24,837 nt of DNA, taken from Elainellaceae cyanobacterium. GTDB taxonomy: Bacteria > Cyanobacteriota > Cyanobacteriia > CAZCXK01. Positions 1 to 24,064 of this stretch are shown here, piece after piece. The notes beneath the pieces are model-generated. The model made no database searches and had not been told where the DNA came from. It saw only the letters and a program-made list of their open reading frames with translations. The translations under genes were made by a program, and so were the position numbers. Where the stretch lies: NCBI GenBank assembly GCA_051117555.1, contig JBNPEG010000110.1, positions 2,776 to 27,612 of the forward strand, given 5' to 3'. Position 1 is the stretch's first letter, and each line of letters starts with the position of its first letter.

Positions 1-507
1 AGCAAGCTCGGCATCGTGGCGCTCAGCATTTCGTTCAATGTTTTCCTGGATTCGAGCCATCTCTAGGTCGCTCCGCTCGGCGTTCCGATTCAAGACTTCA
101 TGAATTTGAGCGATTTCTAGATTGTGCCGTTCGGCCATCTGCTCAAAGCGGGCATCGATGTGCTGCTGCCGCTCGGCCATCTGCTCAAAGCGGGTGTCAA
201 CGTGCTGCTGCCGCTTGGCCATCTGCTCAAAGCGGGTGTCAATATGCTGTTGCCGCTCGGCCATCTGCTCAAAGCGGGTGTCAATATGCTGTTGCCGCTC
301 GGCCATCTGCTCAAAGCGGGTGTCAATATGCTGTTGCCGCTCGGCCATCTGCTCAAAGCGGGTGTCAATATGCTGTTGCCGCTCGGCACTCGCCGTTCGC
401 ATGTCAGCCAATTGCTGAACGTTCCGCATCGTTAGCTCTGCGGTTTGCATGAGTAGCGCTTCAATATGGTCTAAGCGATCGCCAGTTTGCCCATTCCCTT
501 GAGTCAC
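1..507 (-). CDS. Coiled-coil tandem-repeat hypothetical protein (3'-partial, runs off window start)
   Basis: Not in the ORF track. GTG at 507 lies 1 nt after the upstream TAA, preceded by GAGGAG. Frame is open to base 1: MTQGNGQTGDRLDHIEALLMQTAELTMRNVQQLADMRTAS, six AERQQHIDTRFEQM-type units, then AERHNLEIAQIHEVLNRN-AERSDLEMARIQENIERN-AERHDAELA. Most substitutions between repeat units are synonymous or conservative in this frame. Confidence 0.8.
   Translation of the reverse strand, partial: MTQGNGQTGDRLDHIEALLMQTAELTMRNVQQLADMRTASAERQQHIDTRFEQMAERQQHIDTRFEQMAERQQHIDTRFEQMAERQQHIDTRFEQMAKRQQHVDTRFEQMAERQQHIDARFEQMAERHNLEIAQIHEVLNRNAERSDLEMARIQENIERNAERHDAELA
126..387. repeat. 42-bp tandem repeat, about 6.2 copies (coding VNTR, 14 aa per unit)
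   Basis: CCATCTGCTCAAAGCGGG recurs at 135, 177, 219, 261, 303 and 345, with no spacers. Confidence 0.97.
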
Positions 508-508
508 T

Positions 509-778
509 TTAGAACTCCTCTACTTCGATTGATACACAGGCCATCTGGAACCGACACCCTACTGCTGCGGCCAGGACAATTGCCGTATCCAGGGTGCAAC
601 TGCCTACCTCAAACGCTCGTTGAATCTGTGGCTTGCGATTTCGTACAGTCGCTTTCGGATCATCACTAAGATTACAATACTCTCGCACTATTTCTAGCAA
701 CCAATTCTCTTCGCCCCATTTGGTAATTGCACGGTCTTTAATGCGCTCCAGTACGGTTTTTCCGCTAACAATTCCCAC
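509..778 (-). CDS. Small hypothetical protein, possibly HTH-like DNA-binding
   Basis: ORF track 509..850. A GTG at 778 (MGIVSGKTVLERIK) seems the more plausible start. The segment RKPQIQRAFEVGSCTLDTAIVLAAAVGC resembles XRE-type helices. Tightly coupled to the downstream repeat gene. Confidence 0.6.
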   Translation of the reverse strand: MGIVSGKTVLERIKDRAITKWGEENWLLEIVREYCNLSDDPKATVRNRKPQIQRAFEVGSCTLDTAIVLAAAVGCRFQMACVSIEVEEF

Positions 779-848
779 AACGTTACCGCAACTCGGCTCT
801 GTTGATTGTAGCGGTAAAATTAGTGCAAATGTCATCTTTTTAGAGTGC

Positions 849-875
849 AATGCCCCTACCAGTGGCAGGGGCGTT
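849..875. terminator. Stem-loop, possible terminator
   Basis: AATGCCCCTACC-AGT-GGCAGGGGCGTT, about 20 nt past the minus-strand stop at 895. A T-rich tail is present only on the + strand, so direction is uncertain. Confidence 0.4.
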
Positions 876-894
876 TGTTTAATTTCGATTGGGC

Positions 895-1135
895 TTAAGC
901 CGCTTGGCTACTAGCGTGTAGTTCCATCATGGCGATCGCCTCCCGGCGTTCCAGCTTAAGAATTGAAAACTGGTTTCTGAGTAACTGTAGCTCAATGTCT
1001 AGCTCAGCTTTAATATCCTCTTTCTTTCGCAGTTGTGCCGTAGCTCCGATGAGATCACCATCTGTTTCCATGAGTTTCGTACGTTTCGCTTTATGTTGAG
1101 CATCATTTTTGAGGTCTTTGTCAAAGGCGATCGCC
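895..1135 (-). pseudogene. 5'-truncated conserved cyanobacterial hypothetical protein
   Basis: Frame reads AIAFDKDLKNDAQHKAKRTKLMETDGDL...LQLLRNQFSILKLERREAIAMMELHASSQAA*. The DLKNDAQ and LRNQFS.KLE motifs resemble a cyanobacterial hypothetical family recalled from memory. Upstream of the HIP1 at 1126-1135 the frame reaches a TAG with no start codon. Confidence 0.55.
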
Positions 1136-1229
1136 CTAAAGTAAGCTTTTACAGTAATAAATTTTCTCTAGAATCTAAGCTTAGAGTCGGGCGTAGCCGG
1201 ACGCTATGAGAATCTGTAGGCAACTAGAT

Positions 1230-1405
1230 TGAGCTTTTCACAATTCTTGGATAAGCTCGACTGCTGCTTCCACTATTCTTGATGGCCTTGGCAAAGTCTT
1301 TTTGGCAAAGTCTTTATTGACTGTTACTCCGTCAACACGTTCACGAGGCGTTAACGCCTGTGAGTTGCCGAATAGATCCATCTGAGAATCGGACTCGTCC
1401 GAGGG
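1230..1405 (-). pseudogene. Frameshifted remnant of a hypothetical gene
   Basis: SDSQMDLFGNSQALTPRERVDGVTVNKDFAK, then an exact 14-bp tandem duplication (TTGGCAAAGTCTTT at 1288-1301 and 1302-1315) shifts the frame. It continues AIKNSG and, after a second shift, SSRAYPRIV. Confidence 0.4.
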
Positions 1406-1539
1406 ATGGAAGCTTCGCCTTAGCGCGTACGGAAGGTTAGCGAAATACAGTGCGTGTAGGATCGCCCCTTAACAAATTTCCAATTGACAAGCTTTGCCAC
1501 ACAGAACGTATGATCTAGCAAAGTTTCAAACATCTAGCT

Positions 1540-2282
1540 ATGGCGAATGAGCTATCCAACATCGGGAGTGACTACGAGCTTCTCCTGCGAGAACTAAAAG
1601 ACTACATCCGCAACGCTCAAGTACGGGCCGCGATCGCAGTCAATTTGAAAGTCAGCTCTACAAGAGACAGGGAGGAGCCATCACCAACTTTGAACGGGCT
1701 CTCCCCAAACCTCAATCTGATCTGGCGCAGCAACTTCTTAAAGATCCCTATCATTTTGACTTTCTCAATCTAGGAGTAGAAGCTCAAGAGCGGGATTTGG
1801 AGAATGCGTTGGTCAACCATATCCGGGAGTTCTTGCTGGAATTAGGGATAGGATTTGCTTTCGTGGGAAGCCAGTATCACTTGGTGATAGGAGGCGAAGA
1901 TTTCTACATCGACCTGTTGTTCTACCATTTATGATTGCGATGCTATGTGGTGATTGATTTGGAGATGGCTGAGTTTAAGCCAGAGTATTCAGGCAAAATG
2001 AACTTTTACGTGTCAGCAGTGGACGATCTGCTACGACACCCAGATGACCAACCCACCATTGGGATAATTCTGTGCAAGTCGAAGAACAAATCCGTAGCCG
2101 AATATGCGTTACGAGATGTGAATAAGCCGATTGGGGTTTCGACTCATCGTCTGACAGAGACATTGCCAAAATCACTGCAAGGAAGTTTACCAACGGTTGA
2201 GCAACTAGAAATTGAGCTAAACACAGCCGTTGTATCAGCTCAGAAGAGACCTGATTCGACAGATCTAAAGGCATCAAATTAG
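1540..2282 (+). pseudogene. yhcG: YhcG/DUF1016 PD-(D/E)XK nuclease-family pseudogene
   Basis: N-terminus ...IRNAQVRAAIAVN jumps out of frame at about 1645 to ESQLYKRQGGAITNFERALPKPQSDLAQQLLKDPYHFDFL...FLLELGIGFAFVG...FYIDLLFYHL. TGA at 1932-1934, then LRCYVVIDL...PEYSGKMNFY...PTIGIILC...AEYAL. Confidence 0.9.
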
Positions 2283-2453
2283 AGCGATCGCTCACCAGTG
2301 TTAGATTAGAGCACAAGACAGGATGATGAGACAAGAAGGTTGGGCGATCGCCTCGTGACAGTAAAGACAAATCCCAACTGGTGAAAATCTTATCGAGCTT
2401 GTATGTTGTACAAAGCAGTAACAGGATCGTAGAACGTTGTCAGTAAGATGCAG

Positions 2454-3008
2454 CTACAGCCCAGCTTGGCGAAACACGTCTTGAGCCGTCAGCCGCAATC
2501 CAGGCAACAAGTCATCCGTCAAAAGAGAACCACCCCGATAAATTTGTGGCACCTGGTCTGGCATGAATACAGTGATACTCTGAGACTTGGGGTCAACAAT
2601 CCAGACTCTTGAAACGCCTGCGGATAGGTAATCAACCGCCTTTTCTGTCATCTCTCCAAACGACTGGTCAGGAGAAATGATTTCTACGGCAAGCTCTGGC
2701 GGTACTGGGCAGGGACCGTCTTCAACAAAGTCGTCTGGGAGACATTGATTAGAGATATAAAGTAAGTCGGGAACAGGCACCCAATCTATGCCCCTCCGTT
2801 TTAATGTTACAGACCATTCAATGCCCACTTCGCCACGGTCGCGTCCCCAGTTTTCCAATATGAATAGTAATGTCTTTTGGGTTCTTGAATGAAAGCGCTG
2901 AGGAGCCACTTTAGGAATTGCTTCTCCGTTGACTAATTCATAGGCAACATCCGTTTCTGGTAGTGACAGAAACTCGTCGAGTGTCAGATTTTGGGTGGAT
3001 TGCACCAT
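2454..3008 (-). CDS. Uma2 family (DUF820) endonuclease-like protein
   Basis: LTLDEFL, YELVNG, VPDLLY, PELAVEIISP and YLSAGVSRVWIVDP motifs; 184 aa. Confidence 0.93.
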   Translation of the reverse strand: MVQSTQNLTLDEFLSLPETDVAYELVNGEAIPKVAPQRFHSRTQKTLLFILENWGRDRGEVGIEWSVTLKRRGIDWVPVPDLLYISNQCLPDDFVEDGPCPVPPELAVEIISPDQSFGEMTEKAVDYLSAGVSRVWIVDPKSQSITVFMPDQVPQIYRGGSLLTDDLLPGLRLTAQDVFRQAGL

Positions 3009-3103
3009 TGGAAGTGCTCTTAATTGCCTATGTTTTGATTCTATGACGATTTACCGAGTTGAGACAGCCTGCCAAAAGGGCGATCGCCACATACACAAGA
3101 AAA

Positions 3104-3412
3104 CTAGGTGTCCTCGACTAATTCAGCCCGCTCTTCCAGTGCCAGATTGACCAGATCGTCTACTGAACTAAACGTGCGATCGCCTTCTGTCAATTGGATA
3201 TATATTGCGGTGTAATTCTCTAATGTGTACTGGGCACTATAGCGATTACGGGTTTTGCTTAAAAAGAAAAATAACTTTAACTTGGAGGGATCATTCATAG
3301 AGCTCGGTCGGCACACTTCAGCCCACGCCAACCTTTTGATAAGCTTACGCTTGTAGAACTGTTGTTTACCTTCCATCATTTCGCGTTTCGGATAGGGCAA
3401 AAATAGCATCAA
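3104..3412 (-). CDS. Hypothetical protein, probably 5'-truncated next to the IS remnant
   Basis: Protein-like frame extends upstream of the called TTG (CAEFIPEYPGVNRPR) into the transposase fragment. No recognisable domain. Confidence 0.35.
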   Translation of the reverse strand: MMLFLPYPKREMMEGKQQFYKRKLIKRLAWAEVCRPSSMNDPSKLKLFFFLSKTRNRYSAQYTLENYTAIYIQLTEGDRTFSSVDDLVNLALEERAELVEDT

Positions 3413-3469
3413 TCGAGGACGATTAACGCCCGGATACTCTGGAATAAATTCGGCACAAACCTTTGTTTC

Positions 3470-3647
3470 TGCTGCTCGGTAATTTGTTTGACTAGATGCG
3501 TCAAGTCGGAGGCTTTGCGCGCTTCGCTTTCGACCACTAACCAGCGTTGTTCAATCCCCGCAAACTGACGCGTCAGCCACTCTAATCTCAGATGCATTCA
3601 TACATCAAAAATACAATATTTCTATCTCAAAACCTGCGGAATGTGGG
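3470..3647 (-). mobile_element. IS1634-family remnant (left end plus internally deleted transposase)
   Basis: Minus strand begins CCCACATTCCGCA at 3647, a terminus typical of cyanobacterial IS1634. ATG at 3601 gives MNASEIRV, fused out of frame to the mid-transposase segment FAGIEQRWLVVESEARKASDL. Confidence 0.75.
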
Positions 3648-3708
3648 TTTTAAGTTTGTCTGCGCCGCACATGGGAATCCTAAAGATGGCACTTAGCAGG
3701 TACCATCA

Positions 3709-6453
3709 ATGGCTAAAAAATATCGATTCTCTTGGGATGCATTTGACGATCGCGTCGTAACTGCGATCGCCATCACCAACGGGTATTCATTCCTATTCGG
3801 CTCCGATCCACGCACATGGCTAACTACAACCTGTAGCTGCCCGGATGAATCTTTCATTCAGCGCATGAAATCAACGTTGGAGCAAAGCTGGCTACCGAGC
3901 TATCCCGGCACGCCTCAGATTGTCGAGCAACTACTAGATGCAGGCATTGGACCGATGGGTAGCCCCAAAACCCAGCATGATTGTGTCACGTATATCCGCA
4001 AGTGCCGTAACTCAAAAACACTTCGACTGCAATTGTTGGAAGCAATGCTCCGCTATGGCAGTCCGGATCGTCAGCCCGATGACGATTTTCTATCTGTCTC
4101 CACCCGTCGCGTTGCTCAATTTGCCGTCCTTGAACCTGCAAAACAAGCCGTTGATAGTCGCCAACCCCATGATTATCAAGTTGAAGCCTGGAATAAGCTA
4201 TCTGCCCACTTAGCAGAGTCTGAAGCAACCCATATTTTCCAAGGGCTTTTGGTGATGCCAACCGGATCTGGAAAAACCTTCACGACGGTTCGATGGCTCT
4301 TTCAGAATATTATTAACCGGGGCGATCGCGTCGTTTGGCTGGCACACCGGCATGAACTGTTAGAGCAAGCTGCGCGGGAATTTCACGCTCTAGCAGGTCT
4401 AGCAAACCGGATAGAAAAACTGCGCGTGCGCATCGTGTCTGGAATCCATTGCTCCCCAACTCAAATCGATCCGGCTGACCATATCCTGATCGCCTCAGTT
4501 AGCAGTTTGGCCCGTCGCCCCGACTTGATTCGTGAAATTTTGGCTGATCCAACGACATTCTTGGTGATTGATGAAGCGCATCACTCAGCTACCAAAAGCT
4601 ATACGAGCCTAATTGATTGTTTGAATACGGGCGATCGCCGCATTCTCGGTTTGACAGCAACGCCAACTCGCACGTCAGAGCGAGAGCGCGGCACCCTCGC
4701 CGCCATGTTCGGTCACCGCATTCTATATGAAGTCCCTATCAAAACCCTGATTGAGCGACAGTTTCTTTCTCGACCCTTGCCGGTGCATGTTTCAACCCAT
4801 ACCGATGTGGAAGCCGGGATATCGTTAGATGACGAGAAACACTTGGCTCGGTTCAACGAGTTGAGCGACGACTGGCTTGAACGAATTGCCACCATTCAAG
4901 AACGAAACCATTTAATTGTGAGCCACTATCTTGAGAATGCGCAAAAATATGGCAAGACACTAATTTTCGCAATCAATGTCCTACACGCTGACCTCTTAAC
5001 TGAACGCTTAAAAGATGCAGGAGTAAGAGCTGAATATATTGCCAGTGACCGTTTAGATGAGAATCGGATTAACAATCAGGACGTGATTCGTCGATTTCGG
5101 AGCAAAGACCACGACAGTTCCATTGATGTGCTGGTCAATGTGCAAATCTTGACGGAAGGAATTGATATTCCCACTATTCAAACGGTGTTCTTAACGCGAC
5201 CTACTATCAGTGAAATCTTGATGCGACAGATGGTTGGACGGGCACTACGGGGTGAAAAAGCAGGTGGGACAAAGGAAGCCTATATTGTCTCATTTGAGGA
5301 TCACTGGGAGCGCTTTCGTGAATGGCAAAGCCCCCTAACCCTGGTTCCAGATATTGTACCACTGGAGTCTAAGAGAAGTACTGATTTTGACAATTCTGAT
5401 AATTCTGATAATTCTGATAACTTTGGAAATGCTGACAATGCACAGCCACCTGATCTTTTAGAGGCTTTACCGTGGGATTTGATCCATGCGACAGCAGCCC
5501 AGATTTCAGATAGGGGGCAAGGATACGAAGCAGATATATTTGAAGCCGTTCCACATGGTTGGTACGTACTTTCCCGCGAAAACGATGACGGCGACGTCTA
5601 TCAGGTCATTGCCGTGTATGAACATCAGCATCCATCATGGGACGCACTTCTTAACCAGTTGTGGATACTTCCTGAAGCAGACCTTGATTCTATCCAAATA
5701 AACACCACCTTTGACGAATTTTTTTGCGATTGTGATTACCCACTACCTTCCCAATACGAAGTTCAAAAAGTAATTGAGCATCGATTTGCAGGGGGCGATC
5801 GCCCGGAGTATAATCGATTGCAAGAACGAGAGAGGTGTGATCCCTATCGGATTGCCGATCACATCTTGATGGAAGATTTAGGGCCTAAAGCACAGACTCG
5901 TCTCATCAATGATTGCTATACCGATCTTGCTAAAGCCATTTATCCGGGTTTGCGCGATTTTCGAGCCGCGATCGATAATGCCCTCTACGAGCGCCAGTAT
6001 CCTGACGAGATGACCCGTTTCCATCGTGCTGTTCCTATCTTCGACCCCAGACCTGACGAGATGTTGCAATCCGGCCCTTATCACAACCTAGACCGGCTAA
6101 TGGCTGAGGTGATAGAGCAGATTCCGGGATTACTAGGGCTCAATGCATCACTACTTCACCGAAGTACCATATCGTGGACAAAGCGATTAGTGAAGGGATG
6201 GTATGGACACGCACATTGGGAATCAGGTCAGTCTAATGGACACGGCTCTATCCGAATTAATCGGCTCTTGGATAGCCCGGATGTCAGTGACGATATAATT
6301 CGGTACTTGATTTGGCATGAATATCTTCATCTCTATTTACAACAAGGACATACTAATACCTTTCGAAACTACGAGCGTCGTTGGCCGACCTATCGGGAGT
6401 GCGATCGCTTTTTGAATAACCTCAATGAGCGCTTCGGTGTGCAGTTTTGGTAG
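3709..6453 (+). CDS. SF2 DEAD/DEAH helicase (ResIII-like + Helicase_C) fused to a C-terminal SprT/YgjP(DUF45)-like zinc metallopeptidase
   Basis: Helicase motifs HDYQ, MPTGSGKT, LAHRHELLEQ, DEAHH, TATP, LTEGIDIP and QMVGRALR. C-terminus IRINRLLDSPDVSDDIIRYLIWHEYLHLYLQQGHTNTFRNYE (HExxH...H). Confidence 0.88.
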   Translation: MAKKYRFSWDAFDDRVVTAIAITNGYSFLFGSDPRTWLTTTCSCPDESFIQRMKSTLEQSWLPSYPGTPQIVEQLLDAGIGPMGSPKTQHDCVTYIRKCRNSKTLRLQLLEAMLRYGSPDRQPDDDFLSVSTRRVAQFAVLEPAKQAVDSRQPHDYQVEAWNKLSAHLAESEATHIFQGLLVMPTGSGKTFTTVRWLFQNIINRGDRVVWLAHRHELLEQAAREFHALAGLANRIEKLRVRIVSGIHCSPTQIDPADHILIASVSSLARRPDLIREILADPTTFLVIDEAHHSATKSYTSLIDCLNTGDRRILGLTATPTRTSERERGTLAAMFGHRILYEVPIKTLIERQFLSRPLPVHVSTHTDVEAGISLDDEKHLARFNELSDDWLERIATIQERNHLIVSHYLENAQKYGKTLIFAINVLHADLLTERLKDAGVRAEYIASDRLDENRINNQDVIRRFRSKDHDSSIDVLVNVQILTEGIDIPTIQTVFLTRPTISEILMRQMVGRALRGEKAGGTKEAYIVSFEDHWERFREWQSPLTLVPDIVPLESKRSTDFDNSDNSDNSDNFGNADNAQPPDLLEALPWDLIHATAAQISDRGQGYEADIFEAVPHGWYVLSRENDDGDVYQVIAVYEHQHPSWDALLNQLWILPEADLDSIQINTTFDEFFCDCDYPLPSQYEVQKVIEHRFAGGDRPEYNRLQERERCDPYRIADHILMEDLGPKAQTRLINDCYTDLAKAIYPGLRDFRAAIDNALYERQYPDEMTRFHRAVPIFDPRPDEMLQSGPYHNLDRLMAEVIEQIPGLLGLNASLLHRSTISWTKRLVKGWYGHAHWESGQSNGHGSIRINRLLDSPDVSDDIIRYLIWHEYLHLYLQQGHTNTFRNYERRWPTYRECDRFLNNLNERFGVQFW
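5389..5420 (+). repeat. 9-bp tandem repeat (AATTCTGAT x3) encoding a DNSDNSDNSDN linker
   Basis: Exact copies at 5392, 5401 and 5410. Confidence 0.85.
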
Positions 6454-6480
6454 GCCGCCCAGAGTTTAGACTGGGTTGAT

Positions 6481-7530: not shown

Positions 7531-8406
7531 TCAAGATTCAACCGATTCGGCTCGTCCAAACAATCCTTGGGGGCGAAAAAACAGAAGTGCCAACAGCAAC
7601 ACGAAGGCGATCGCATCTTTATATCCCACTGCAATGTAGGTGGCAGCTAAACTCTCGCTTAGCCCTACTACAATGGCACCTGCAATCGCTCCGGGTAAGC
7701 TACCGACGCCGCCCAAAATCACAATTGTGAATGCTTTTGGGGTTGCCAAGTCTCCCATAGAAGGCGTCATAAAAAACACCATCGAAAGAATCGCTCCCCC
7801 AGCAGCGGCTAGACCCGCACCAATAGAAAATGTTAGACCATAGGCGCGATCGACGTTCACTCCCATGAGTTGTGCCGTCTCTTGGTCTTGAAAGCAGGCT
7901 CTCAAAGCAATGCCCTCTTTCGTTTTCTTAAAGTACAGATGCAGTCCTAGAATTAGGGCGATCGCAAGAGCAGTTGCTAGCAGATGAATAGGAGCAACGT
8001 AGATTCCGGCGATTGACCATGAATCGGTGCCAATCGGGACGGGAAGACGTTTTTCAACGGGTCCCCAAAGCAACAGGGCTGCATTTTGCAAGACAAGCAT
8101 CAGTCCAATCGTCGTCACCATACGAATCAGAATGTCTCGATTCCGCAGAGGACGAAACAAAACAATATCAACGCCATAGGCAAATACCATAACCGCCAAG
8201 ATTCCCAGGGGAAACCCTACCCAAAATGGTAGCCCTAATAATGCAGTAGTCGTAAATACAAAGTAAGCTCCTAGCATGTAAAACTCGCCGTGAGCAAAAT
8301 TGACCAAATCCATCAGTCCGAAAATCAGCGTCATGCCGACTCCCATCAGCGCATAGGTGCCAGCCAAGATAATGCCGTTGACAATGACTTGTCCTAGTTC
8401 TTCCAT
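7531..8406 (-). CDS. livH: Branched-chain amino acid-type ABC transporter permease (LivH family)
   Basis: GMTLIFGLMDLVNFAHGEFYMLGAY, ILGGVGSLPGA and FRPQGLFG motifs. Start moved to ATG 8406 (MEELGQVIVNG). Symbol is family-level only. Confidence 0.92.
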   Translation of the reverse strand: MEELGQVIVNGIILAGTYALMGVGMTLIFGLMDLVNFAHGEFYMLGAYFVFTTTALLGLPFWVGFPLGILAVMVFAYGVDIVLFRPLRNRDILIRMVTTIGLMLVLQNAALLLWGPVEKRLPVPIGTDSWSIAGIYVAPIHLLATALAIALILGLHLYFKKTKEGIALRACFQDQETAQLMGVNVDRAYGLTFSIGAGLAAAGGAILSMVFFMTPSMGDLATPKAFTIVILGGVGSLPGAIAGAIVVGLSESLAATYIAVGYKDAIAFVLLLALLFFRPQGLFGRAESVES

Positions 8407-8540
8407 GGAAAGTAGCGTTATTCCAAACGAATACGTCCGATACGTAAGCAATATGGGAATGATAGATCCGGTGTAGTTCATGCGTCATGCTTGGATGAAT
8501 CTATCCATGGATGAGTCCAGTGGTCTATCATTTCCTGCTA

Positions 8541-8628
8541 TATAGCGATCCTAAATCGCTTGTAAATTGTGTGTAAGAGGTGGGGCGGGCGCCGCCCGCC
8601 CCACCTCTTACAACCCGGGATTGCTATA
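8541..8628. mobile_element. 88-bp MITE-like element with IS630-like TA-bounded ends and an internal long hairpin
   Basis: Left end TATAGCGATCC, right end GGATTGCTATA (10/11 inverted match). Perfect 20-bp inverted arms at 8572-8591 and 8593-8612. Ends 1 nt from the stop codon of the binding-protein gene. Confidence 0.7.
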
Positions 8629-8629
8629 A

Positions 8630-9877
8630 CTATTCGCTTTGCACCACAAAGTCTACGGAGCCATCTTCTTTAACCATTCCAATGAAAACAGGTGGCACGT
8701 TTTGGTTGATTAAGCCTTGCCAATCCCCAAATGAAATATCACCATACATGACTCCTTGGTATTTCACTGATTTCAACGCATCGCGAATCGTTTCATGATT
8801 AATATCCCCATCTAGAGAATCGAGCGCTTCTTCCATCGTATAAACAGCATCATATCCTCGTCCGGCTTCTCCCAGCTCCGAAAACTTATAGCCCTGTTCT
8901 TCCCATTTTTCAGTAAACTCGGCGGCTTGATCTGGAGCTTTAGACAAGGAAGAATCATAAGCTCCTGGAAAAAATACCGTGTGATAGCTGCCGCTACTCG
9001 ACTCTAGCCCAGCCAGTTCCACTACTTTTTCTGGCCAGCTTCCCCCCGTTGCTAAAATCTTCAGGTCAATACCTAGGGTCTTCGCTTGCTCTAGGATCAG
9101 CGCAATTTGGCTATTGCTTGTGGTGACAATGGCAGAATCGGCTCCTGCTGCCTTGACCTTGCTCAACAGAGGCTTAAAGTCTACCTCAGCTTGCTCAAAA
9201 TACTCCTCGCCAACGATTTCGCCTCCGTTCTCGGTGATATGGGGACTGTAGCTAGCAATGGCTCCACGTCCCCAGTCATTATTAACGGCTAAGAAAAATA
9301 CGTTGTTAAAACCTAGAGTTTTTACTAAGTCATCTCGAACAGCCCATGCTTCTAGAGGCGTAGGGGGAGCTAGGCGGAACGTCCACTCATTACCGGACTC
9401 CTCTGGATCGGTAATTTTGAAAGAACTAGAAGTTTCGACTAACAACGGTACTTCATACTGCTGAATGATTGGAATCACAGCCAAGGTACAGGAACTGCCC
9501 CACGCGCCGATGATAGCTTCAACCTCATCGCGGGTCACAACTTTGGTGGCTGCGCTGGTACACTGGGCTGGATCATTCGCTGTATCTTCGATGATCAGCT
9601 CGATAGGGCGGCCATCCACGCCACCCTCATTATTAATTTCTTCTACTGCGATTACCGCTGCATCTCGAATCGCAATGCCATTGGCTGCGACAGGCCCAGT
9701 GAGGGGTTGAAGCAGCCCTATTTTGATGGGTTCTCCTTCTGTGGTTGCCTCTGCTTCTGTTGAGGAATCGACCGACTGTTCACTAGAGGGAGGGGCACTA
9801 CACGCTACGATTAGAGAGGTTGCAAGGGTCGCAAGAATACTCGGAATCCAAAGGCGTCTAGAGGAAGACAGAGTCAT
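8630..9877 (-). CDS. ABC transporter substrate-binding lipoprotein (LivJ/K, Peripla_BP_6 family)
   Basis: Lipobox-like IVAC, IKIGLLQPLTG, INNEGGVDGRPIELIIED; AAGGAG upstream of the ATG. Confidence 0.92.
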   Translation of the reverse strand: MTLSSSRRLWIPSILATLATSLIVACSAPPSSEQSVDSSTEAEATTEGEPIKIGLLQPLTGPVAANGIAIRDAAVIAVEEINNEGGVDGRPIELIIEDTANDPAQCTSAATKVVTRDEVEAIIGAWGSSCTLAVIPIIQQYEVPLLVETSSSFKITDPEESGNEWTFRLAPPTPLEAWAVRDDLVKTLGFNNVFFLAVNNDWGRGAIASYSPHITENGGEIVGEEYFEQAEVDFKPLLSKVKAAGADSAIVTTSNSQIALILEQAKTLGIDLKILATGGSWPEKVVELAGLESSSGSYHTVFFPGAYDSSLSKAPDQAAEFTEKWEEQGYKFSELGEAGRGYDAVYTMEEALDSLDGDINHETIRDALKSVKYQGVMYGDISFGDWQGLINQNVPPVFIGMVKEDGSVDFVVQSE

Positions 9878-19482: not shown

Positions 19483-21939
19483 ATGACCTATCCCAAACAT
19501 GCCTTCATCAGCTACACCAAAGCCGATCGCGCTTGGGCAGAATGGATTGCCTGGACACTTGAGGAAGCGGGCTATTCTGTCGTCATTGATATCTGGGATT
19601 TTCGCGGCGGGCATGACTCTGTGCAGAAGATGCACGAGGCATCGATTGAGTGTGAAAAGCTAATTGCCGTTCTCTCTGAAGATTATCTGCAAGCTACTTA
19701 TACCTAACCGGAATGGCGATCGGCGTTTGCCAATGATCCGCAGGGGGAGAAGCGTCGGCTGGTATTTGTGCGCGTACGCGAGTGCCAGCTACAGGGATTG
19801 CTGAAGCCTCGCATCTATCTAGACTTGATTGGCACGTCTGAAGCTGCTGCGAAACGCGACATTTTGGGCATTTGGGAAGAGCGCGGCAAGCCTGACCAAA
19901 AGCCATCTTTTCCAGGAGTATCGTCACGAGTCGCTTCAAAGCCAGTCGAGTTTCCGACCAGTGCGAAGCAACGCCTCCCCTGGAACATTCCGTTTCCTCG
20001 CAATCCGTTTTTTACCGGGCGAGACGAATTACTCAGCGACCTACGCAATCAACTGACGCAAACGAGCGCTGCTGCTCTGTCGCAACCTGCTGCCATCAGC
20101 GGCTTAGGCGGCATTGGCAAAACCCAAACTGCGATCGAATATGCCTATCGATATCGCGACGCGTACAGCGCTGTGTTTTGGGTGAGGGCGGAATCTGAGG
20201 ATAGACTGATTTCAGGGTTTATGGGGATTGCGGAGCTGCTGAAGCTGCCGGGGCGTGACCAGCAAGACCAGCAGATTGTTGTAGCCGCCGCGAAGCACTG
20301 GCTGAATGAACACGAAAACTGGCTGCTGATCTTTGACAATGCCAATGAGCTGAATTTGCTTCGAAACTATCTGCCGCGAGAGATGGGTGGGCATGTGCTG
20401 ATCACCACTCGCGCTCAGGCAATCGGCACTTTTGGTCAACGGATTGAACTGCGGCAGATGCAAACGGACGAAGGGGCCACCTTTTTGCTGCGTCGTGCTC
20501 GGATTATTCTTGATAGTCAGTGCTTAGACGATGCATCCGATGCCGATCGGCAAACCGCTCAGGAGATTGCGAACCTGATGGATGGCTTGCCGTTGGCACT
20601 CGACCAGGCAGGTGCATTTATCGAAGAGATGATGATTAGCCTCAGCGAGTATCAAGACCTGTATCAGCAAGAAGGCATCAAACTACTGGCAGAACGCGGT
20701 GAACTGGCAGGCGAACGAAGTGATACAGAAGAGGATCACCACCCAGTGACAATCACTTTCTCCCTTGCCTTCAAAAAAGTCGAAGAACGCAACCCAGCCG
20801 CAGCCGACCTACTGAGAGTCTGCGCTTTTTTAGCGCCCGACGCCATCCCTGAAGAGATTTTTGTAGAAGGGAAAGACGTGTTAGGAGAGCGCCTGAGTAA
20901 GGTCACGCAAAACCGAGTTGCGCTCACACGAACAATCGCGGAAGCCGCAAAGTTTTCGTTGGTCTATCGCAATCCAGACGCCAAAACGCTGGATATGCAT
21001 CGACTGGTGCAAGACGTTTTGCGAGACGAGATGGATGAGGAAGGACAGAAAACCTGGACAGACCGGGCAATGAGAGCTGTGAATGCGGCGTTTCCCAACC
21101 CTGAATTTGAGAATTGGTCGACGTGCGATCGCCTCTTGCTCCACGCTACCACTGTCATAATTTGGCGAAGACAGTTTCAGTTAAAGTCCGAAGCTGCGGG
21201 TCGCTTGTTAAACCAAACAGGCTACTACTTGAGGGAAAGAGGAAATCTCAATGAAGCTGAAACCCTATATCAAGAAGTCCTGGTGTTAAGTCAGAACTTG
21301 TTCGGCGATCGCCATTCCTACGTTGCTACTATTCTCAATAACTTAGCAGGGTTGTATGATTCGCGAGGAAATTATACCGAAGCTGAATCACTCTATAAAC
21401 AAGCTTTGGAGTTGCGGCTAGAGGCACTAGGCGATCGCCATCCTGATGTGGCAACCAGTCTGAACAATCTCGCAGAATTATATCGGTCGCAAGGGCACTA
21501 TGAGGCCGCCGAACCCCTCTACCTTGAAGCGTTGCAGATACAGAAGGAGCTGTTGGGCGATACGCGCTCCGCGCAGGCGAGCCAACGCCATCCTGATGTG
21601 GCTGGCAGTCTAAACAATCTCGCGGAATGTCGGTTAAAATTCTCTACTCTTCTCCTCAAGCAGATTGGAAACCAGATAGAACTTAACGAACGAGCCATAC
21701 CCAAAGCTACTACCCTGACGGAATATGTAGTGAACACATTACTCAAATCATACTGTGTACTGCCACAGGCTCCTTGGGCGATCGCCCAAGTTTTTCTCCT
21801 ATCAGTTCGAGGGGCGATGAAACTATTTCCTGTCCTGCTGGATATGAGCCCTGTATCCAAGCAACTTTCAGATAGGTTCCAGCTTGTAGGAGGGAGAACC
21901 TCAGACTTCAAGCTCCCTAAGTTCAAATATTGCTTTTAG
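19483..21939 (+). pseudogene. TIR-NB-ARC(STAND)-TPR protein with an in-frame nonsense codon and a truncated TPR array
   Basis: TIR AFISY...WAEWIAWTLE...YLQATYT*PEW with TAA at 19705-19707. The same frame continues to FTGR, GLGGIGKT, LLIFDN, GLPLAL, MHRLV and HPDVATSLNNLA TPRs. Homology stops abruptly at about 21630. Confidence 0.9.
21562..21585. mobile_element. 24-bp insertion inside a HIP1 site (small dispersed repeat-like)
   Basis: GGCGAT[ACGCGCTCCGCGCAGGCGAGCCAA]CGCC. The two preceding TPRs have intact GGCGATCGCC (GDRH) at the equivalent position. Confidence 0.8.
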
Positions 21940-22039: not shown

Positions 22040-24064
22040 CTAGAAAGTGAATGCAGTTCGCAAGACTCCTACTACAGCAGTATCATTTCTGCTATACCCT
22101 TCGGGATTGAAGACAGCAAACACACCAGGAGTCACGGTGATAAAATCTGACACCCGGAAGCTGATATATCCTTCCAAATGATAGGGGTCAGAATCTTCAG
22201 GGTTGAAGGCATCGCCGCCTGTGCTATCTCGATTTAGGGGTTGCCCGAAGACGATGCCTGCCGAGTTGCCCTCCCGAAAGATGTCCTGTGCATGGACACC
22301 CACCATCCAGTTGATGAAATTGGTAGATGCATCAACATCTACCAGATCGGCAAAGATATAAGCACCCGATGCAGTAAACGAGATATTGTCTAGAAAGCGC
22401 CAATTGATGGTTGCTCCAAGGGAGTTCATGCGAATCCCTTCATTGGCGATCGCCAGTACCGAATCACCTCCCGTTGCAGCTAACTGATCAGCATCGGGAT
22501 TAAAGAGAACTGAACCGATATCTGAACTGCTCAAGCCCGTAGCCAAAATATTGATCTGATGATAGCTGTTGGCATAATTTAGCCCAATGTCTAGAGTATC
22601 GCTGGGAGTAAGAGTGAGTTGTGATGCAATCACATAACTTCCATTGAATAGTCCTGCTCCCAGTGGAGTTCCGCCCAGTAATCCCTGATTATCAGGAATG
22701 GGCGCATTTACACTGGCATATAACCCCACCAAGCTGACCCAATCTGCAAGATTCCAAACGAAGCCCCCAGCGGATGCCAAGCCAGTTCCCGATGTCCCTC
22801 CAGACACTCGCACCGCTGCATTATAGGGTGCGAAACGAGAGATGGCTCCCTGGGTGTCGCTTGCGAAGGGACTAACTGATGGAAATACATCGGTAACCTC
22901 GACATTCGAAGCCACAAAGAAGGTGACATCGTCAAAGACAGGAAACAAGTATGCTAGTTTGTATAGCCGGAGCTCATTGGGGTCAAGGGGGGAAAGGGTT
23001 TGAGGGTCGGTGCCCGGAAACTGGGGTTCAAATCCTAGGCGTGTCGTACTAGCATTGAGGGAAAGTGGATCAGAATACCCCAACGTTCCTTGAGTACTAT
23101 TCGGATCGCTGAGAAAGTTGTAGGCTTGTAGTCCTGTAATGAGTGCATCCCGCCCGGTAAAACTGGTAGTCAGATTTAGGCGGACTCGATAGTTGAAAGC
23201 AATCTGTGTATCATCGCCGGCCTCTCCGCCCGTGTTGGTCAAAATGCCGGGAGTGGTATCAGATTCGCCAGCCCCCGGATAGGCTCCTCCCGCACCAACC
23301 ACTCCAAAGATGACTTCTCCATTCAGTCGGGTTGTGGTCGAAAATTGGTTGGCTTCTAATTCAGCAGTGCGGGCTTCGAGGGCATCAACCCTGCCACGTA
23401 GAGTTGCGAGTTCGGCGGCAAATTCTTCTTGCAATCGTTGGAGCACTGCCAGATCACCACGGGTCACCACATCAGCCAGCCCTGCTGCAGTCAATTCATT
23501 GAGCCGATCAAGGCAAGCATTCAATCCGGCAGCAAATTCATATCGGCTCAGAGCACGATTGCCCCGGAAGGTGCCATCGGGATATCCTGCGATGCATCCA
23601 TACCGTTCTACCAAAGACTGTAGTGCCTGAAATGCCCAGTCGGTCGGTTGGACATCCGAAAGTTGCGATACCGATGTTACTTGTGATAACGGATTATTAT
23701 CAAGCGATAGCGAATTATTATCAAGGGTAGGTGTTTCAACATGCGGCATTGAGGATTGTGGAGCAGGCTGGATCGGAGTCGCTTCGTCAACATCCGCTTG
23801 ACTGTCTTGTGCCGCAGCCGTCAATAGTTCTATTGCCTGCAGGTCAGCGACCTGTTGCTCATATTTAAATGTATTGTCTGACGTATCTACATCCCATATA
23901 TCCAAACTTGAATGAGTTGGGGATATATCTGATTGCTTAGAGAAATCTGATTGTTTAGAGAACATATTAGTCTCTGCTGCTGCCACTTTAGCTCCCCAAA
24001 GAGCATGCAGCAACAAATAAGCAAGGGTAACTCGCTGAAGGTAAATTCGAGAAAATATAGACAC
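22040..24064 (-). CDS. Cyanobacterial outer-membrane porin (SLH + OprB; 'iron uptake porin' family)
   Basis: QVTSVSQLSDVQPTDWAFQALQSLVERYGCIAGYPDGTFRGNRALSRYEFAAGL, QFSTTTRLNGE, C-terminal VLRTAFTF. GTG start with GAGGA upstream. Confidence 0.96.
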   Translation of the reverse strand: MSIFSRIYLQRVTLAYLLLHALWGAKVAAAETNMFSKQSDFSKQSDISPTHSSLDIWDVDTSDNTFKYEQQVADLQAIELLTAAAQDSQADVDEATPIQPAPQSSMPHVETPTLDNNSLSLDNNPLSQVTSVSQLSDVQPTDWAFQALQSLVERYGCIAGYPDGTFRGNRALSRYEFAAGLNACLDRLNELTAAGLADVVTRGDLAVLQRLQEEFAAELATLRGRVDALEARTAELEANQFSTTTRLNGEVIFGVVGAGGAYPGAGESDTTPGILTNTGGEAGDDTQIAFNYRVRLNLTTSFTGRDALITGLQAYNFLSDPNSTQGTLGYSDPLSLNASTTRLGFEPQFPGTDPQTLSPLDPNELRLYKLAYLFPVFDDVTFFVASNVEVTDVFPSVSPFASDTQGAISRFAPYNAAVRVSGGTSGTGLASAGGFVWNLADWVSLVGLYASVNAPIPDNQGLLGGTPLGAGLFNGSYVIASQLTLTPSDTLDIGLNYANSYHQINILATGLSSSDIGSVLFNPDADQLAATGGDSVLAIANEGIRMNSLGATINWRFLDNISFTASGAYIFADLVDVDASTNFINWMVGVHAQDIFREGNSAGIVFGQPLNRDSTGGDAFNPEDSDPYHLEGYISFRVSDFITVTPGVFAVFNPEGYSRNDTAVVGVLRTAFTF

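Follow-up and report, generated by a model that had tools for sequence, protein, structure and literature searches.

A cyanobacterial SF2 helicase fused to a predicted zinc-peptidase-like domain: a candidate single-gene defence system

A gene in a 24,837-nucleotide stretch of contig JBNPEG010000110.1 from an Elainellaceae cyanobacterium (hereafter the window, meaning this whole stretch) encodes a 914-aa protein that carries a superfamily 2 (SF2) helicase core and ends in a predicted zinc-hydrolase domain. The reading frame is uninterrupted and ATG-initiated (Table 1). The initial annotation had described an intact open reading frame (ORF) with an unrecognised N-terminal domain (N-domain), a DEAH helicase core and an acidic middle domain, and all of these were recovered by Pfam, motif and composition analysis. 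The gene is predicted to be a monocistronic unit with its own transcription, since the upstream genes lie on the opposite strand, the operon downstream runs towards it and its stop codon is followed by a terminator-like hairpin. A promoter scan of the gene did no better than on shuffled sequence. Among public read sets, parts of the stretch were found only in two soil-metagenome DNA runs from one study, with no RNA set listed.

The motor is a complete SF2 core, with every helicase motif invariant in 27/27 aligned homologues. Pfam placed ResIII at residues 152-321 (E 2.4e-23) and Helicase_C at residues 406-514 (E 2.8e-12), both above their cut-offs, and DEAD also matched. The nearest solved structures were 7clg (E 3.6e-29, spanning query residues 146-511), RadD (6jde, 1.4e-25) and type I HsdR (3h1t, 1e-24), whilst Hef, LGP2, FANCM, XPB and UvrB ranked lower. 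The 7clg entry is labelled 'Putative helicase' and we take it to be the type IV restriction enzyme SauUSI. Matches in PADLOC and NCBIfam (PbeA, mREase_IV, REase_I, RadD, EcoAI HsdR) covered the core only and fell far below the family cut-offs. Thus mREase_IV, among the two best PADLOC matches (E 4e-22), aligned only over model positions 219-554 of 945. The best NCBIfam match was RadD (NF053632; E 6e-31, residues 155-529), and its 107.3 bits against a cut-off of 720 indicate that the protein is not a RadD orthologue. EcoAI-type HsdR scored 96.8 bits against a cut-off of 550 (E 1e-27) and TIGR00348 (type I R) 30.9 bits against 284.55. By these matches, the closest relatives of the motor are translocases of restriction and repair.

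The C-terminal domain contains an HExxH motif in a strictly conserved setting. Residues W869, H870, E871, L873, H874, H881 and E889 were invariant in 27/27 aligned homologues of 43-90% identity, which rules out a chance origin, and the last residue, W914, was kept in at least 90% of the same alignment. HExxH was also present in 45/46 aligned locus-encoded relatives, the exception (L032) ending before that region. The possibility raised in the initial annotation that the motif might not be conserved was thus not borne out. A sequence-profile search of the PDB returned peptidases only, namely projannalysin (E 1.2e-4) and selecase (2e-4), aligning HExxH and the following His with the same HExxH(x6)H spacing as in selecase.

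Structure prediction pointed to the same proteins. An AlphaFold2 (AF2) model of residues 578-914, built from a 44-sequence alignment, had a predicted local distance difference test score (pLDDT) of 84.9 and a predicted template modelling score of 0.75. Superposing residues 791-914 with VIA-align gave the best scores for the minigluzincins projannalysin (4jix, Z 10.5, root-mean-square deviation (rmsd) 2.5, 100/104 residues), selecase (4qhf, Z 10.3) and proabylysin (4jiu, Z 10.2), with 100-107 of 104-109 residues aligned at rmsd 2.5-2.8. These were followed by SPRTN (6mdx, Z 8.7), YbeY (7y7o Z 7.5, 1xm5 Z 6.8, 1oz9 Z 6.6), BepA (Z 7.2) and Wss1 (Z 6.1-6.4). The top Foldseek matches were SPRTN (first, E 5e-3), selecase and abylysin, none of them at E<=1e-3. 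The Pfam YgjP-like profile matched residues 859-904 (profile positions 161-206 of 207) at E 0.051, with 14 bits against a cut-off of 26, and the SprT-like profile gave no match in the window protein at E<=1. Relatives passed the YgjP-like cut-off (P0191 at 38.4 bits, L071 at 28.2, P0182 at 27.7), and P0191 passed that of SprT-like (28.7 bits against 25.6). The YgjP homology of the window protein is thus supported transitively, whilst the protein itself is no member of the model. Taken together, the profile and predicted-fold matches to minigluzincins and SPRTN identify the C-terminal module, in the modelled structure, as a SprT/YgjP/minigluzincin-type zinc hydrolase domain, as the initial annotation had proposed, with minigluzincins its closest predicted structural class. 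Passages in two papers assign Wss1 and SPRTN to the minigluzincins as well (PMC4559962, PMC5557861).

The N-domain is conserved in 32 sequences, in which W9 and P86 are invariant; the invariant positions of the 27-sequence alignment include F7, W9, F12, P45, W61 and P86. Residues 1-150 had no Pfam, NCBIfam or PADLOC match, and neither a PDB profile search nor Foldseek returned anything for the domain, with no usable match in the Atlas. Its AF2 model (pLDDT 84.4) is all-helical, with a six-helix bundle at residues 14-117 and a low-confidence linker at about 120-150, and no PD-(D/E)xK or other nuclease family matched residues 1-150. The best VIA-align rows were caspase recruitment domains, those of NOD1 (Z 5.8), RIP2 (Z 5.5) and NLRC4, caspase-1 and ASC (Z 5.0), all below the noise level of Z 7-8. 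More speculatively, the modelled bundle could be a death-fold-like oligomerisation module, and the whole protein would then be arranged like RIG-I, with an adaptor domain leading to an SF2 sensor helicase and an effector. A predicted complex between the N-domain and the C-terminal region scored 0.22 (mark 0.32) in a run without controls, and this score weighs neither way on docking.

Between motor and hydrolase lie an acidic linker and a conserved middle domain. Asp and Glu make up 25% of the linker (residues 546-585) and 19% of residues 586-790, where Lys and Arg make up 9%. The middle domain is modelled mostly at pLDDT 80-96 and carries the motifs LPWDLI, FEAVPHGWYVL, VYEHQ, F-DCD-P and R--CDP. 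No convincing PDB fold match was found for residues 586-790 by Foldseek or VIA-align, and an Atlas structure search gave template modelling scores of 0.56-0.62 to helicase clusters, some of them HNH-bearing. An Atlas feature search suggested EcoEI_R_C (0.84, a lead only). This candidate was dropped, as hhalign of the 578-914 alignment against the EcoEI_R_C regions of neighbouring HsdRs gave probabilities of 0.4% (L008) and 0.2% (L033). The linker is the most length-variable part of the family; its (DNS)n stretch is encoded by a 9-bp tandem repeat of 4.1 copies and could change by slippage.

Table 1. Features of the window (positions counted from its first letter).
Feature	Position	Strand	Remarks
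Whole ORF	3709..6453	+	914 aa plus stop
N-domain, residues 1-150	3709..4158	+	conserved in relatives, AF2 model; family-specific
SF2 helicase/translocase core, residues about 151-545	4159..5343	+	Pfam ResIII, DEAD, Helicase_C
Q-motif PHDYQ, residues 153-157	4165-4179	+	within SF2 core
Walker A GSGKT, residues 186-190	4264-4278	+	within SF2 core
DEAH, residues 288-291	4570-4581	+	within SF2 core
TATPTR, residues 316-321	4654-4671	+	within SF2 core
Motif VI QMVGRALRG, residues 507-515	5227-5253	+	within SF2 core
Acidic low-complexity linker, residues 546-585	5344..5463	+	gappy, unconserved in 27-sequence alignment
9-bp tandem repeat	5384-5420		within acidic linker
Acidic middle domain, residues 586-790	5464..6078	+	conserved; common to HNH-ending sister helicases
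C-terminal zinc-hydrolase domain (predicted), residues 791-914	6079..6450	+	minigluzincin/SprT/YgjP-like
HEYLH, residues 870-874	6316-6330	+	within C-terminal domain
Third His, H881	6349-6351	+	within C-terminal domain
Terminal tail ERFGVQFW, residues 907-914	6427-6450	+	within C-terminal domain
HIP1 octamer GCGATCGC	6401..6408	.	inside gene 3' end; deletion breakpoint in sister genome G002
Terminator-like hairpin, then T-rich tail	6457..6476	+	between convergent stop codons; consensus scan only
YhcG_C fragment	1935-2282	+	profile positions 70-157 of 157
Uma2 gene, intact	2454-3008	-	upstream
Small ORF	3104-3412		overlaps 3409-3597 ORF
62-aa ORF	3409-3597		weak IS1634 transposase match, E 1.9e-4
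Permease gene	7531-8481
Dispersed element	8525-8635		palindromic core 8572-8612
Binding-protein gene	8630-9877
STAND-type gene	19768-21939	+	723 aa
SLH-OprB porin gene	22040-24064	-	674 aa

The protein belongs to a sizeable family. Of 8000 candidates scored in a word-indexed search, 879 were relatives at E<=1e-3; all but one of the best 120 covered 96-100% of the query at 42-89% identity and were about 880-980 aa long. Where relatives had a name, it was only 'DEAD/DEAH box helicase' or 'superfamily II DNA or RNA helicase'. An exhaustive search with a profile of residues 578-914 matched 2332 cluster representatives (50% identity) at E<=1e-3; tightening the threshold to <=1e-10 left 561, and to <=1e-30, 251. 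The 150 top-scoring representatives were mostly proteins of 750-930 aa with the C-terminal module at the end, plus fragments. Pfam found helicase domains in 22/22 representatives picked for odd length or module position, eight of which added a C-terminal zinc ribbon and two TPR repeats. Searches of shorter proteins gave 38 matches for the C-terminal region and three for the N-domain, mostly small pieces on short contigs, the three N-domain matches all reading as pieces of the same family. Since these matches read as fragments, both modules appear confined to this helicase family at the sensitivity of the searches.

Scanning one genome from each of 185,579 species by pattern yielded 282 stretches encoding relatives, from which 78 loci were retained. 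The full-length form is present in Cyanobacteria (five loci), in many Myxococcota, and in Latescibacterota, Thermodesulfobacteriota, Acidobacteriota, Hydrogenedentota, Planctomycetota, Bacteroidota and Bacillota, as well as in Pseudomonadota-labelled bins and one Gordonia bin, so that the family spans more than ten phyla. A second clade (Bacillota, Caldisericota) lacks the N-domain and keeps the motor, the middle domain and an HE[LMQ]LH-x6-H[DN] motif. No named system in PADLOC-DB v2.0.0 matched beyond the helicase core, for the window protein or for ten relatives including HNH and N-less forms, in line with the earlier remark that the architecture is not a named system.

Sister proteins that match the query only to residue ~739-805 end in an HNH endonuclease rather than a peptidase. 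Four pass the HNH cut-off of 21.4 bits (L060 at 46.9, L063 at 41, L062 at 30.8 and L066 at 29.8), and six Bacteroidota sister proteins match weakly at 17-20 bits. The motor and middle domain would thus form a chassis and the C-terminal domain a swappable effector; such an exchangeable slot, as read from these sequences, is typical of conflict systems. One 1454-aa protein (L042:336-4700) extends this chassis with HNH, TPR repeats, a zinc ribbon, a Ser/Thr protein kinase and an FGE-sulfatase-like domain. The separate HNH endonuclease gene (293-323 aa) found directly upstream of the N-less form in the Caldisericia-type clade (L052:8941-9912, L067:8852-9733) suggests that this clade may combine both effectors.

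The HNH sisters also bear on what the zinc domain cuts. It might be a metal-dependent nucleic-acid or nucleotide hydrolase, making the protein a classical helicase-nuclease like these sisters, since an HNH DNA nuclease fills the same position and a nucleic-acid-cutting effector would be the simplest equivalent. The modelled fold resembles YbeY, an endoribonuclease with H-x-x-x-H that lacks the catalytic Glu, at the Z scores given above. Nucleotide hydrolase activity is reported for E. coli YgjP, and we know of no proven protein substrate for the YgjP-like family. By contrast, the catalytic Glu of HExxH is invariant here, true peptidases match better (Z 10.2-10.5, with near full-length coverage of minigluzincins), and the profile search gave only peptidases, with the His spacing of selecase. 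We therefore regard a nucleic-acid or nucleotide hydrolase as improbable.

Within its own lineage the gene is accessory. It is single-copy in its 6.06-Mb genome, and two of four genomes of its own family carry it; searches of G002 (of the same genus and 99% complete) and G001 did not yield it. Of 401 sampled genomes of the phylum, six matched at E<=1e-50, the full-length protein occurring in the window's genome only and the N-less form in one other. In the phylum of the Nannocystaceae genome G403 (locus L012), 2/301 sampled genomes matched at E<=1e-100, G403 included. The initial annotation had considered that homologues might be core, syntenic and already characterised, and instead they are rare, patchy and named only as helicases. 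Comparison of G002 with contig L001 revealed how the gene can be lost: the alignment stops 10 bp short of the upstream hydrolase gene's stop codon and resumes 55 bp before that of the helicase. A clean deletion has removed 2817 bp, its ends overlapping by ~11 bp at a HIP1 octamer, and has left the last ~55 bp of the gene as a remnant; the remnant indicates that the gene is ancestral in the genus and dispensable.

In a quick maximum-likelihood tree (46 rows, L032 omitted), the window grouped with the five cyanobacterial loci (SH-aLRT 100), and this clade was nested among lineages from Myxococcota and other phyla. Phyla are interleaved throughout, and the Myxococcota label requires seven changes. 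By tblastn, no phage copy with at least 80% coverage was found among 1120 matching records and no plasmid copy among 1178, the matches covering the helicase core only in both cases; the cyanobacterial homologue L003 lies on a scaffold titled unlocalised plasmid. The G+C content of the gene equals that of its surroundings. The HIP1 octamer, a cyanobacterial signature, occurs 44 times in the window, against 0.63 expected by chance.

The initial annotation had placed the gene at the edge of a decayed accessory region. This held for the upstream YhcG fragment and the weak IS1634 match, whilst the Uma2 gene and a downstream convergent operon, encoding a branched-chain amino-acid ABC transporter, proved intact. 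The decay is also no property of the family and is peculiar to this genome: window positions 1-3700 are unlike both sister genomes, similarity to the sister contig begins at 3648, 61 bp before the ATG, and the upstream neighbours in the sister genomes are ordinary housekeeping genes, for an aminotransferase-V and a DUF1400 hydrolase. Between the permease and binding-protein genes lies an element of ~90-100 bp with dozens of copies (82-91% identity) on many contigs of sister genomes G002 and G003; from its sequence it looks like a MITE-like small dispersed repeat. Further downstream are a STAND-type protein with NB-ARC, DUF7779 and TPR_10/TPR_12 repeats, a bacterial NLR-like architecture, and after it the porin gene.

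We compared gene neighbourhoods across loci. Our own calling gave 884 ORFs for the window and the 78 loci together; in all-against-all clustering of these, no neighbour family was shared beyond close kin, and the full-length form has no conserved partner gene. None of the 23 scanned window ORFs encoded a methylase, hsdM, hsdS or hsdR, in agreement with the initial annotation, which had seen no methylase or partner. Two genes on each side were then scanned at 30 full-length loci (111 proteins), leaving out the near-duplicates L003, L004 and L037 and truncated loci. PADLOC (E<=1e-15) identified defence proteins at 13/30 loci, a raw count with no matched background. These were IetA and DrmA (L002), AbiEii (L007), a type I R subunit (L008), AbiLi (L011), BrxB and BrxC (L013), a Dsr2-like SIR2 (L014), type IIG and Ppl (L015), BrxD and BrxHI (L017), MkoA and a type IV REase (L019), a DrmD/BrxHII fragment (L023), GmrSD-like HEC-05 (L024), type I S and R subunits (L033), and AbiEi and AbiD (L034). 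Pfam added six loci (PIN, NTase+HEPN, PIN_10/DUF433, DUF2357, DUF433, McrBC), bringing the union to 19/30, likewise a raw count. By type, the neighbours at these loci belong to restriction-modification, BREX, DISARM, Abi, Mokosh or toxin-antitoxin systems. At L002, L003 and L004 the gene is flanked on one side by IetA-type ATPase and RNase III-like genes and on the other by a NERD/UvrD-type helicase followed by a 1337-aa DrmA (DISARM), a setting that, by annotation, is a dense defence island common to three cyanobacterial genera. The N-less forms have clade-specific upstream genes, such as an AAA_14-DUF4143 ATPase in L053 and L054.

Type I loci among these neighbours raise the question of a restriction-modification accessory: the protein might dock with a type I methyltransferase as an alternative motor subunit, or act as a protease keeping restriction subunits in check (restriction alleviation). 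Type I restriction-modification loci often harbour free-standing YgjP/DUF45 genes. In L033 the order is S subunit, unknown gene, helicase-peptidase, PIN gene and EcoEI-type HsdR; in L008 the gene immediately upstream encodes an EcoEI-type HsdR, as it does in L037 judging from ORF layout alone. EcoAI-type HsdR has a similar motor, and the Atlas lead for the middle domain pointed the same way. Against this, type I genes were within two genes in only 2/30 loci, the window has no hsdM, hsdS or hsdR, no neighbour family is conserved, hhalign to the EcoEI_R_C regions stayed below 1% probability and there is no PD-(D/E)xK nuclease domain. An accessory role in restriction is, of the readings weighed here, the one we find hardest to credit.

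We favour, with a probability of roughly 55%, defence against mobile elements, probably phages, by a single gene: an ATP-driven double-stranded-DNA translocase like SauUSI, HsdR and RadD would bring along a latent zinc metallopeptidase fused to its C-terminus. The reasons are the restriction-type motor, the swappable effector, the variable sensor-like add-ons (N-domain, zinc ribbon, TPR, kinase), the rarity, the spread across phyla, the easy loss and the defence-island neighbours. We infer DNA as the track, protein as the substrate, the mechanism of latency and the biological role. In such a system the helical N-domain and acidic middle domain would hold the enzyme off or select its target. 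The motor would load on foreign or aberrant DNA and translocate, and stalling at a DNA-bound protein would free the tethered peptidase from auto-inhibition. In proabylysin, according to a passage in PMC5557861, the C-terminal tail occupies the cleft and contacts the zinc. By analogy with this zymogen tail, the nearly invariant aromatic C-terminal tail of the helicase could block the cleft. Once released, the peptidase would cleave the roadblock, which may be a phage replication, packaging or terminal protein, or alternatively an essential host DNA-bound protein, leading to abortive infection.

A bolder and more tentative proposal is an immunity that attacks not DNA but the proteins on it. Here a restriction-type motor would patrol DNA and, on collision, fire its tethered SPRTN-like protease at the bound or covalently attached proteins of an invading phage or plasmid genome, for which terminal proteins, replication initiators, packaging motors and protective DNA-coating proteins are candidates. 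The HNH sister clade would do the same job with a nuclease.

The main rival to defence is the repair of DNA-protein crosslinks or roadblocks, in which a RadD-like motor would run on host DNA and a SprT/Wss1-like protease would degrade trapped proteins. The fold matches to SPRTN, the top Foldseek match, and to Wss1 are consistent with this, and RadD is both the best NCBIfam and the second-best PDB match of the motor. In L061 the N-less form is preceded, at a distance of ~360 bp, by an SRAP (HMCES/YedK family) gene (L061:8969-9664), and L064 has the same layout by clustering. The SRAP family itself forms DNA-protein crosslinks, so this neighbour possibly points to crosslink processing. These two loci are, however, from two near-identical strains of Ruminococcus flavefaciens only, and the 107 bits for RadD are far under the cut-off of 720. 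One would expect a general repair function to occur in many genomes, yet the full-length gene was found in 1/401 and matches in 2/301 sampled genomes. It was lost by simple deletion from a 99%-complete genome of the same genus and moves between phyla, its effector slot is exchangeable with an HNH nuclease, and 13-19/30 loci are defence or toxin-antitoxin neighbourhoods. Of the two functions offered in the initial annotation, these neighbourhoods favour defence over crosslink repair, which we consider unlikely.

Several observations nevertheless weigh against the favoured defence system. About 11/30 loci have only housekeeping or unannotated neighbours, and in this genus the gene is flanked by housekeeping genes and not by a defence island, as would also suit crosslink repair. 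The neighbourhood counts come with no matched background from loci that are phylogenetically non-independent, and the labels PIN, DUF433 and AAA_21 are ambiguous. The SRAP neighbour belongs here too. Five HIP1 octamers in the 2.7 kb of the helicase ORF equal the average density of the window, and this indicates an old lineage resident, not a recent import. As to the effector, the window protein stays below the YgjP-like cut-off (14 against 26 bits), and since the fold also resembles the RNase YbeY (Z 7.5) the substrate of the zinc domain need not be protein.

Helicase-plus-effector single-gene defences and protease effectors are both known. Neither PADLOC v2 nor the searched literature offers a characterised DNA translocase joined to a protease of the SPRTN/minigluzincin type. 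No description of the architecture turned up in the full-text literature searched, which most subscription journals fall outside, nor is it mentioned in the available portion of PMC8195603. An excerpt of the Tiamat preprint reports an inactive Wss1-like fold in a different protein. If the anti-phage role is true, the family would represent a new effector logic, proteolysis delivered along DNA, and its peptidase and HNH versions on one chassis would form a natural comparison pair. If crosslink repair is true, the family would give bacteria a motor-coupled counterpart to SPRTN and Wss1, for which we know of no equivalent in bacteria. On either reading a sizeable family, 251 clusters, is annotated only as 'DEAD/DEAH box helicase'.

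Known systems share parts of this design. SauUSI-type enzymes (7clg), the nearest solved motor, likewise combine an SF2 DNA translocase and an effector in a single polypeptide and occur in defence islands. SauUSI carries a PLD nuclease at its N-terminus and a reader of modified bases at its C-terminus, whereas the window protein has no PLD Pfam match or nuclease domain and instead a helical N-domain, an acidic middle and a predicted zinc-peptidase tail. Type I HsdR (EcoAI/EcoEI, 3h1t) has a homologous motor and is an occasional neighbour (L008, L033); unlike it, the window protein has no PD-(D/E)xK nuclease, no detectable EcoEI_R_C and no hsdM/hsdS partner in the window. RadD (YejH) of E. coli (6jde) has a similar motor without a peptidase domain and is a conserved chromosomal gene in enterobacteria, whereas the helicase-peptidase family is rare and patchy.

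On the peptidase side, SPRTN, Wss1 and SprT (PF10263) share the zinc-peptidase fold, and their protease acts in a DNA context, as proposed for the helicase-peptidase. Some N-less relatives add a zinc ribbon, and bacterial SprT has one at its C-terminus. SPRTN and Wss1 have no motor of their own and depend on p97/Cdc48 or the replication fork, whereas the window protein has its motor in the same chain. The minigluzincins (selecase MJ1213, projannalysin, proabylysin) are closest by profile and predicted structure and share the HExxH(x6)H spacing in the case of selecase. They are free-standing archaeal proteins of ~110 aa, whilst the module here ends a 914-aa helicase after a dedicated middle domain. 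The nearest Pfam family is YgjP-like/DUF45 (PF01863, COG1451), with a common pattern of a strand I-R-I-N, HExxH and a later His and Phe, although only the last ~45 of 207 profile positions match the window protein; YgjP proteins are stand-alone and ~170-240 aa long.

Hna and Nhi are single-protein helicase-nuclease defences. A Snf2-nuclease fusion from Halomonas is reported as a further single-protein defence (PMC11232893). Like these, the helicase-peptidase joins an SF1 or SF2 motor to an effector in one polypeptide and has defence-island locations, and its HNH sisters fit the class directly. The difference is in the effector: a nuclease in those systems, a zinc peptidase-like domain in this one.

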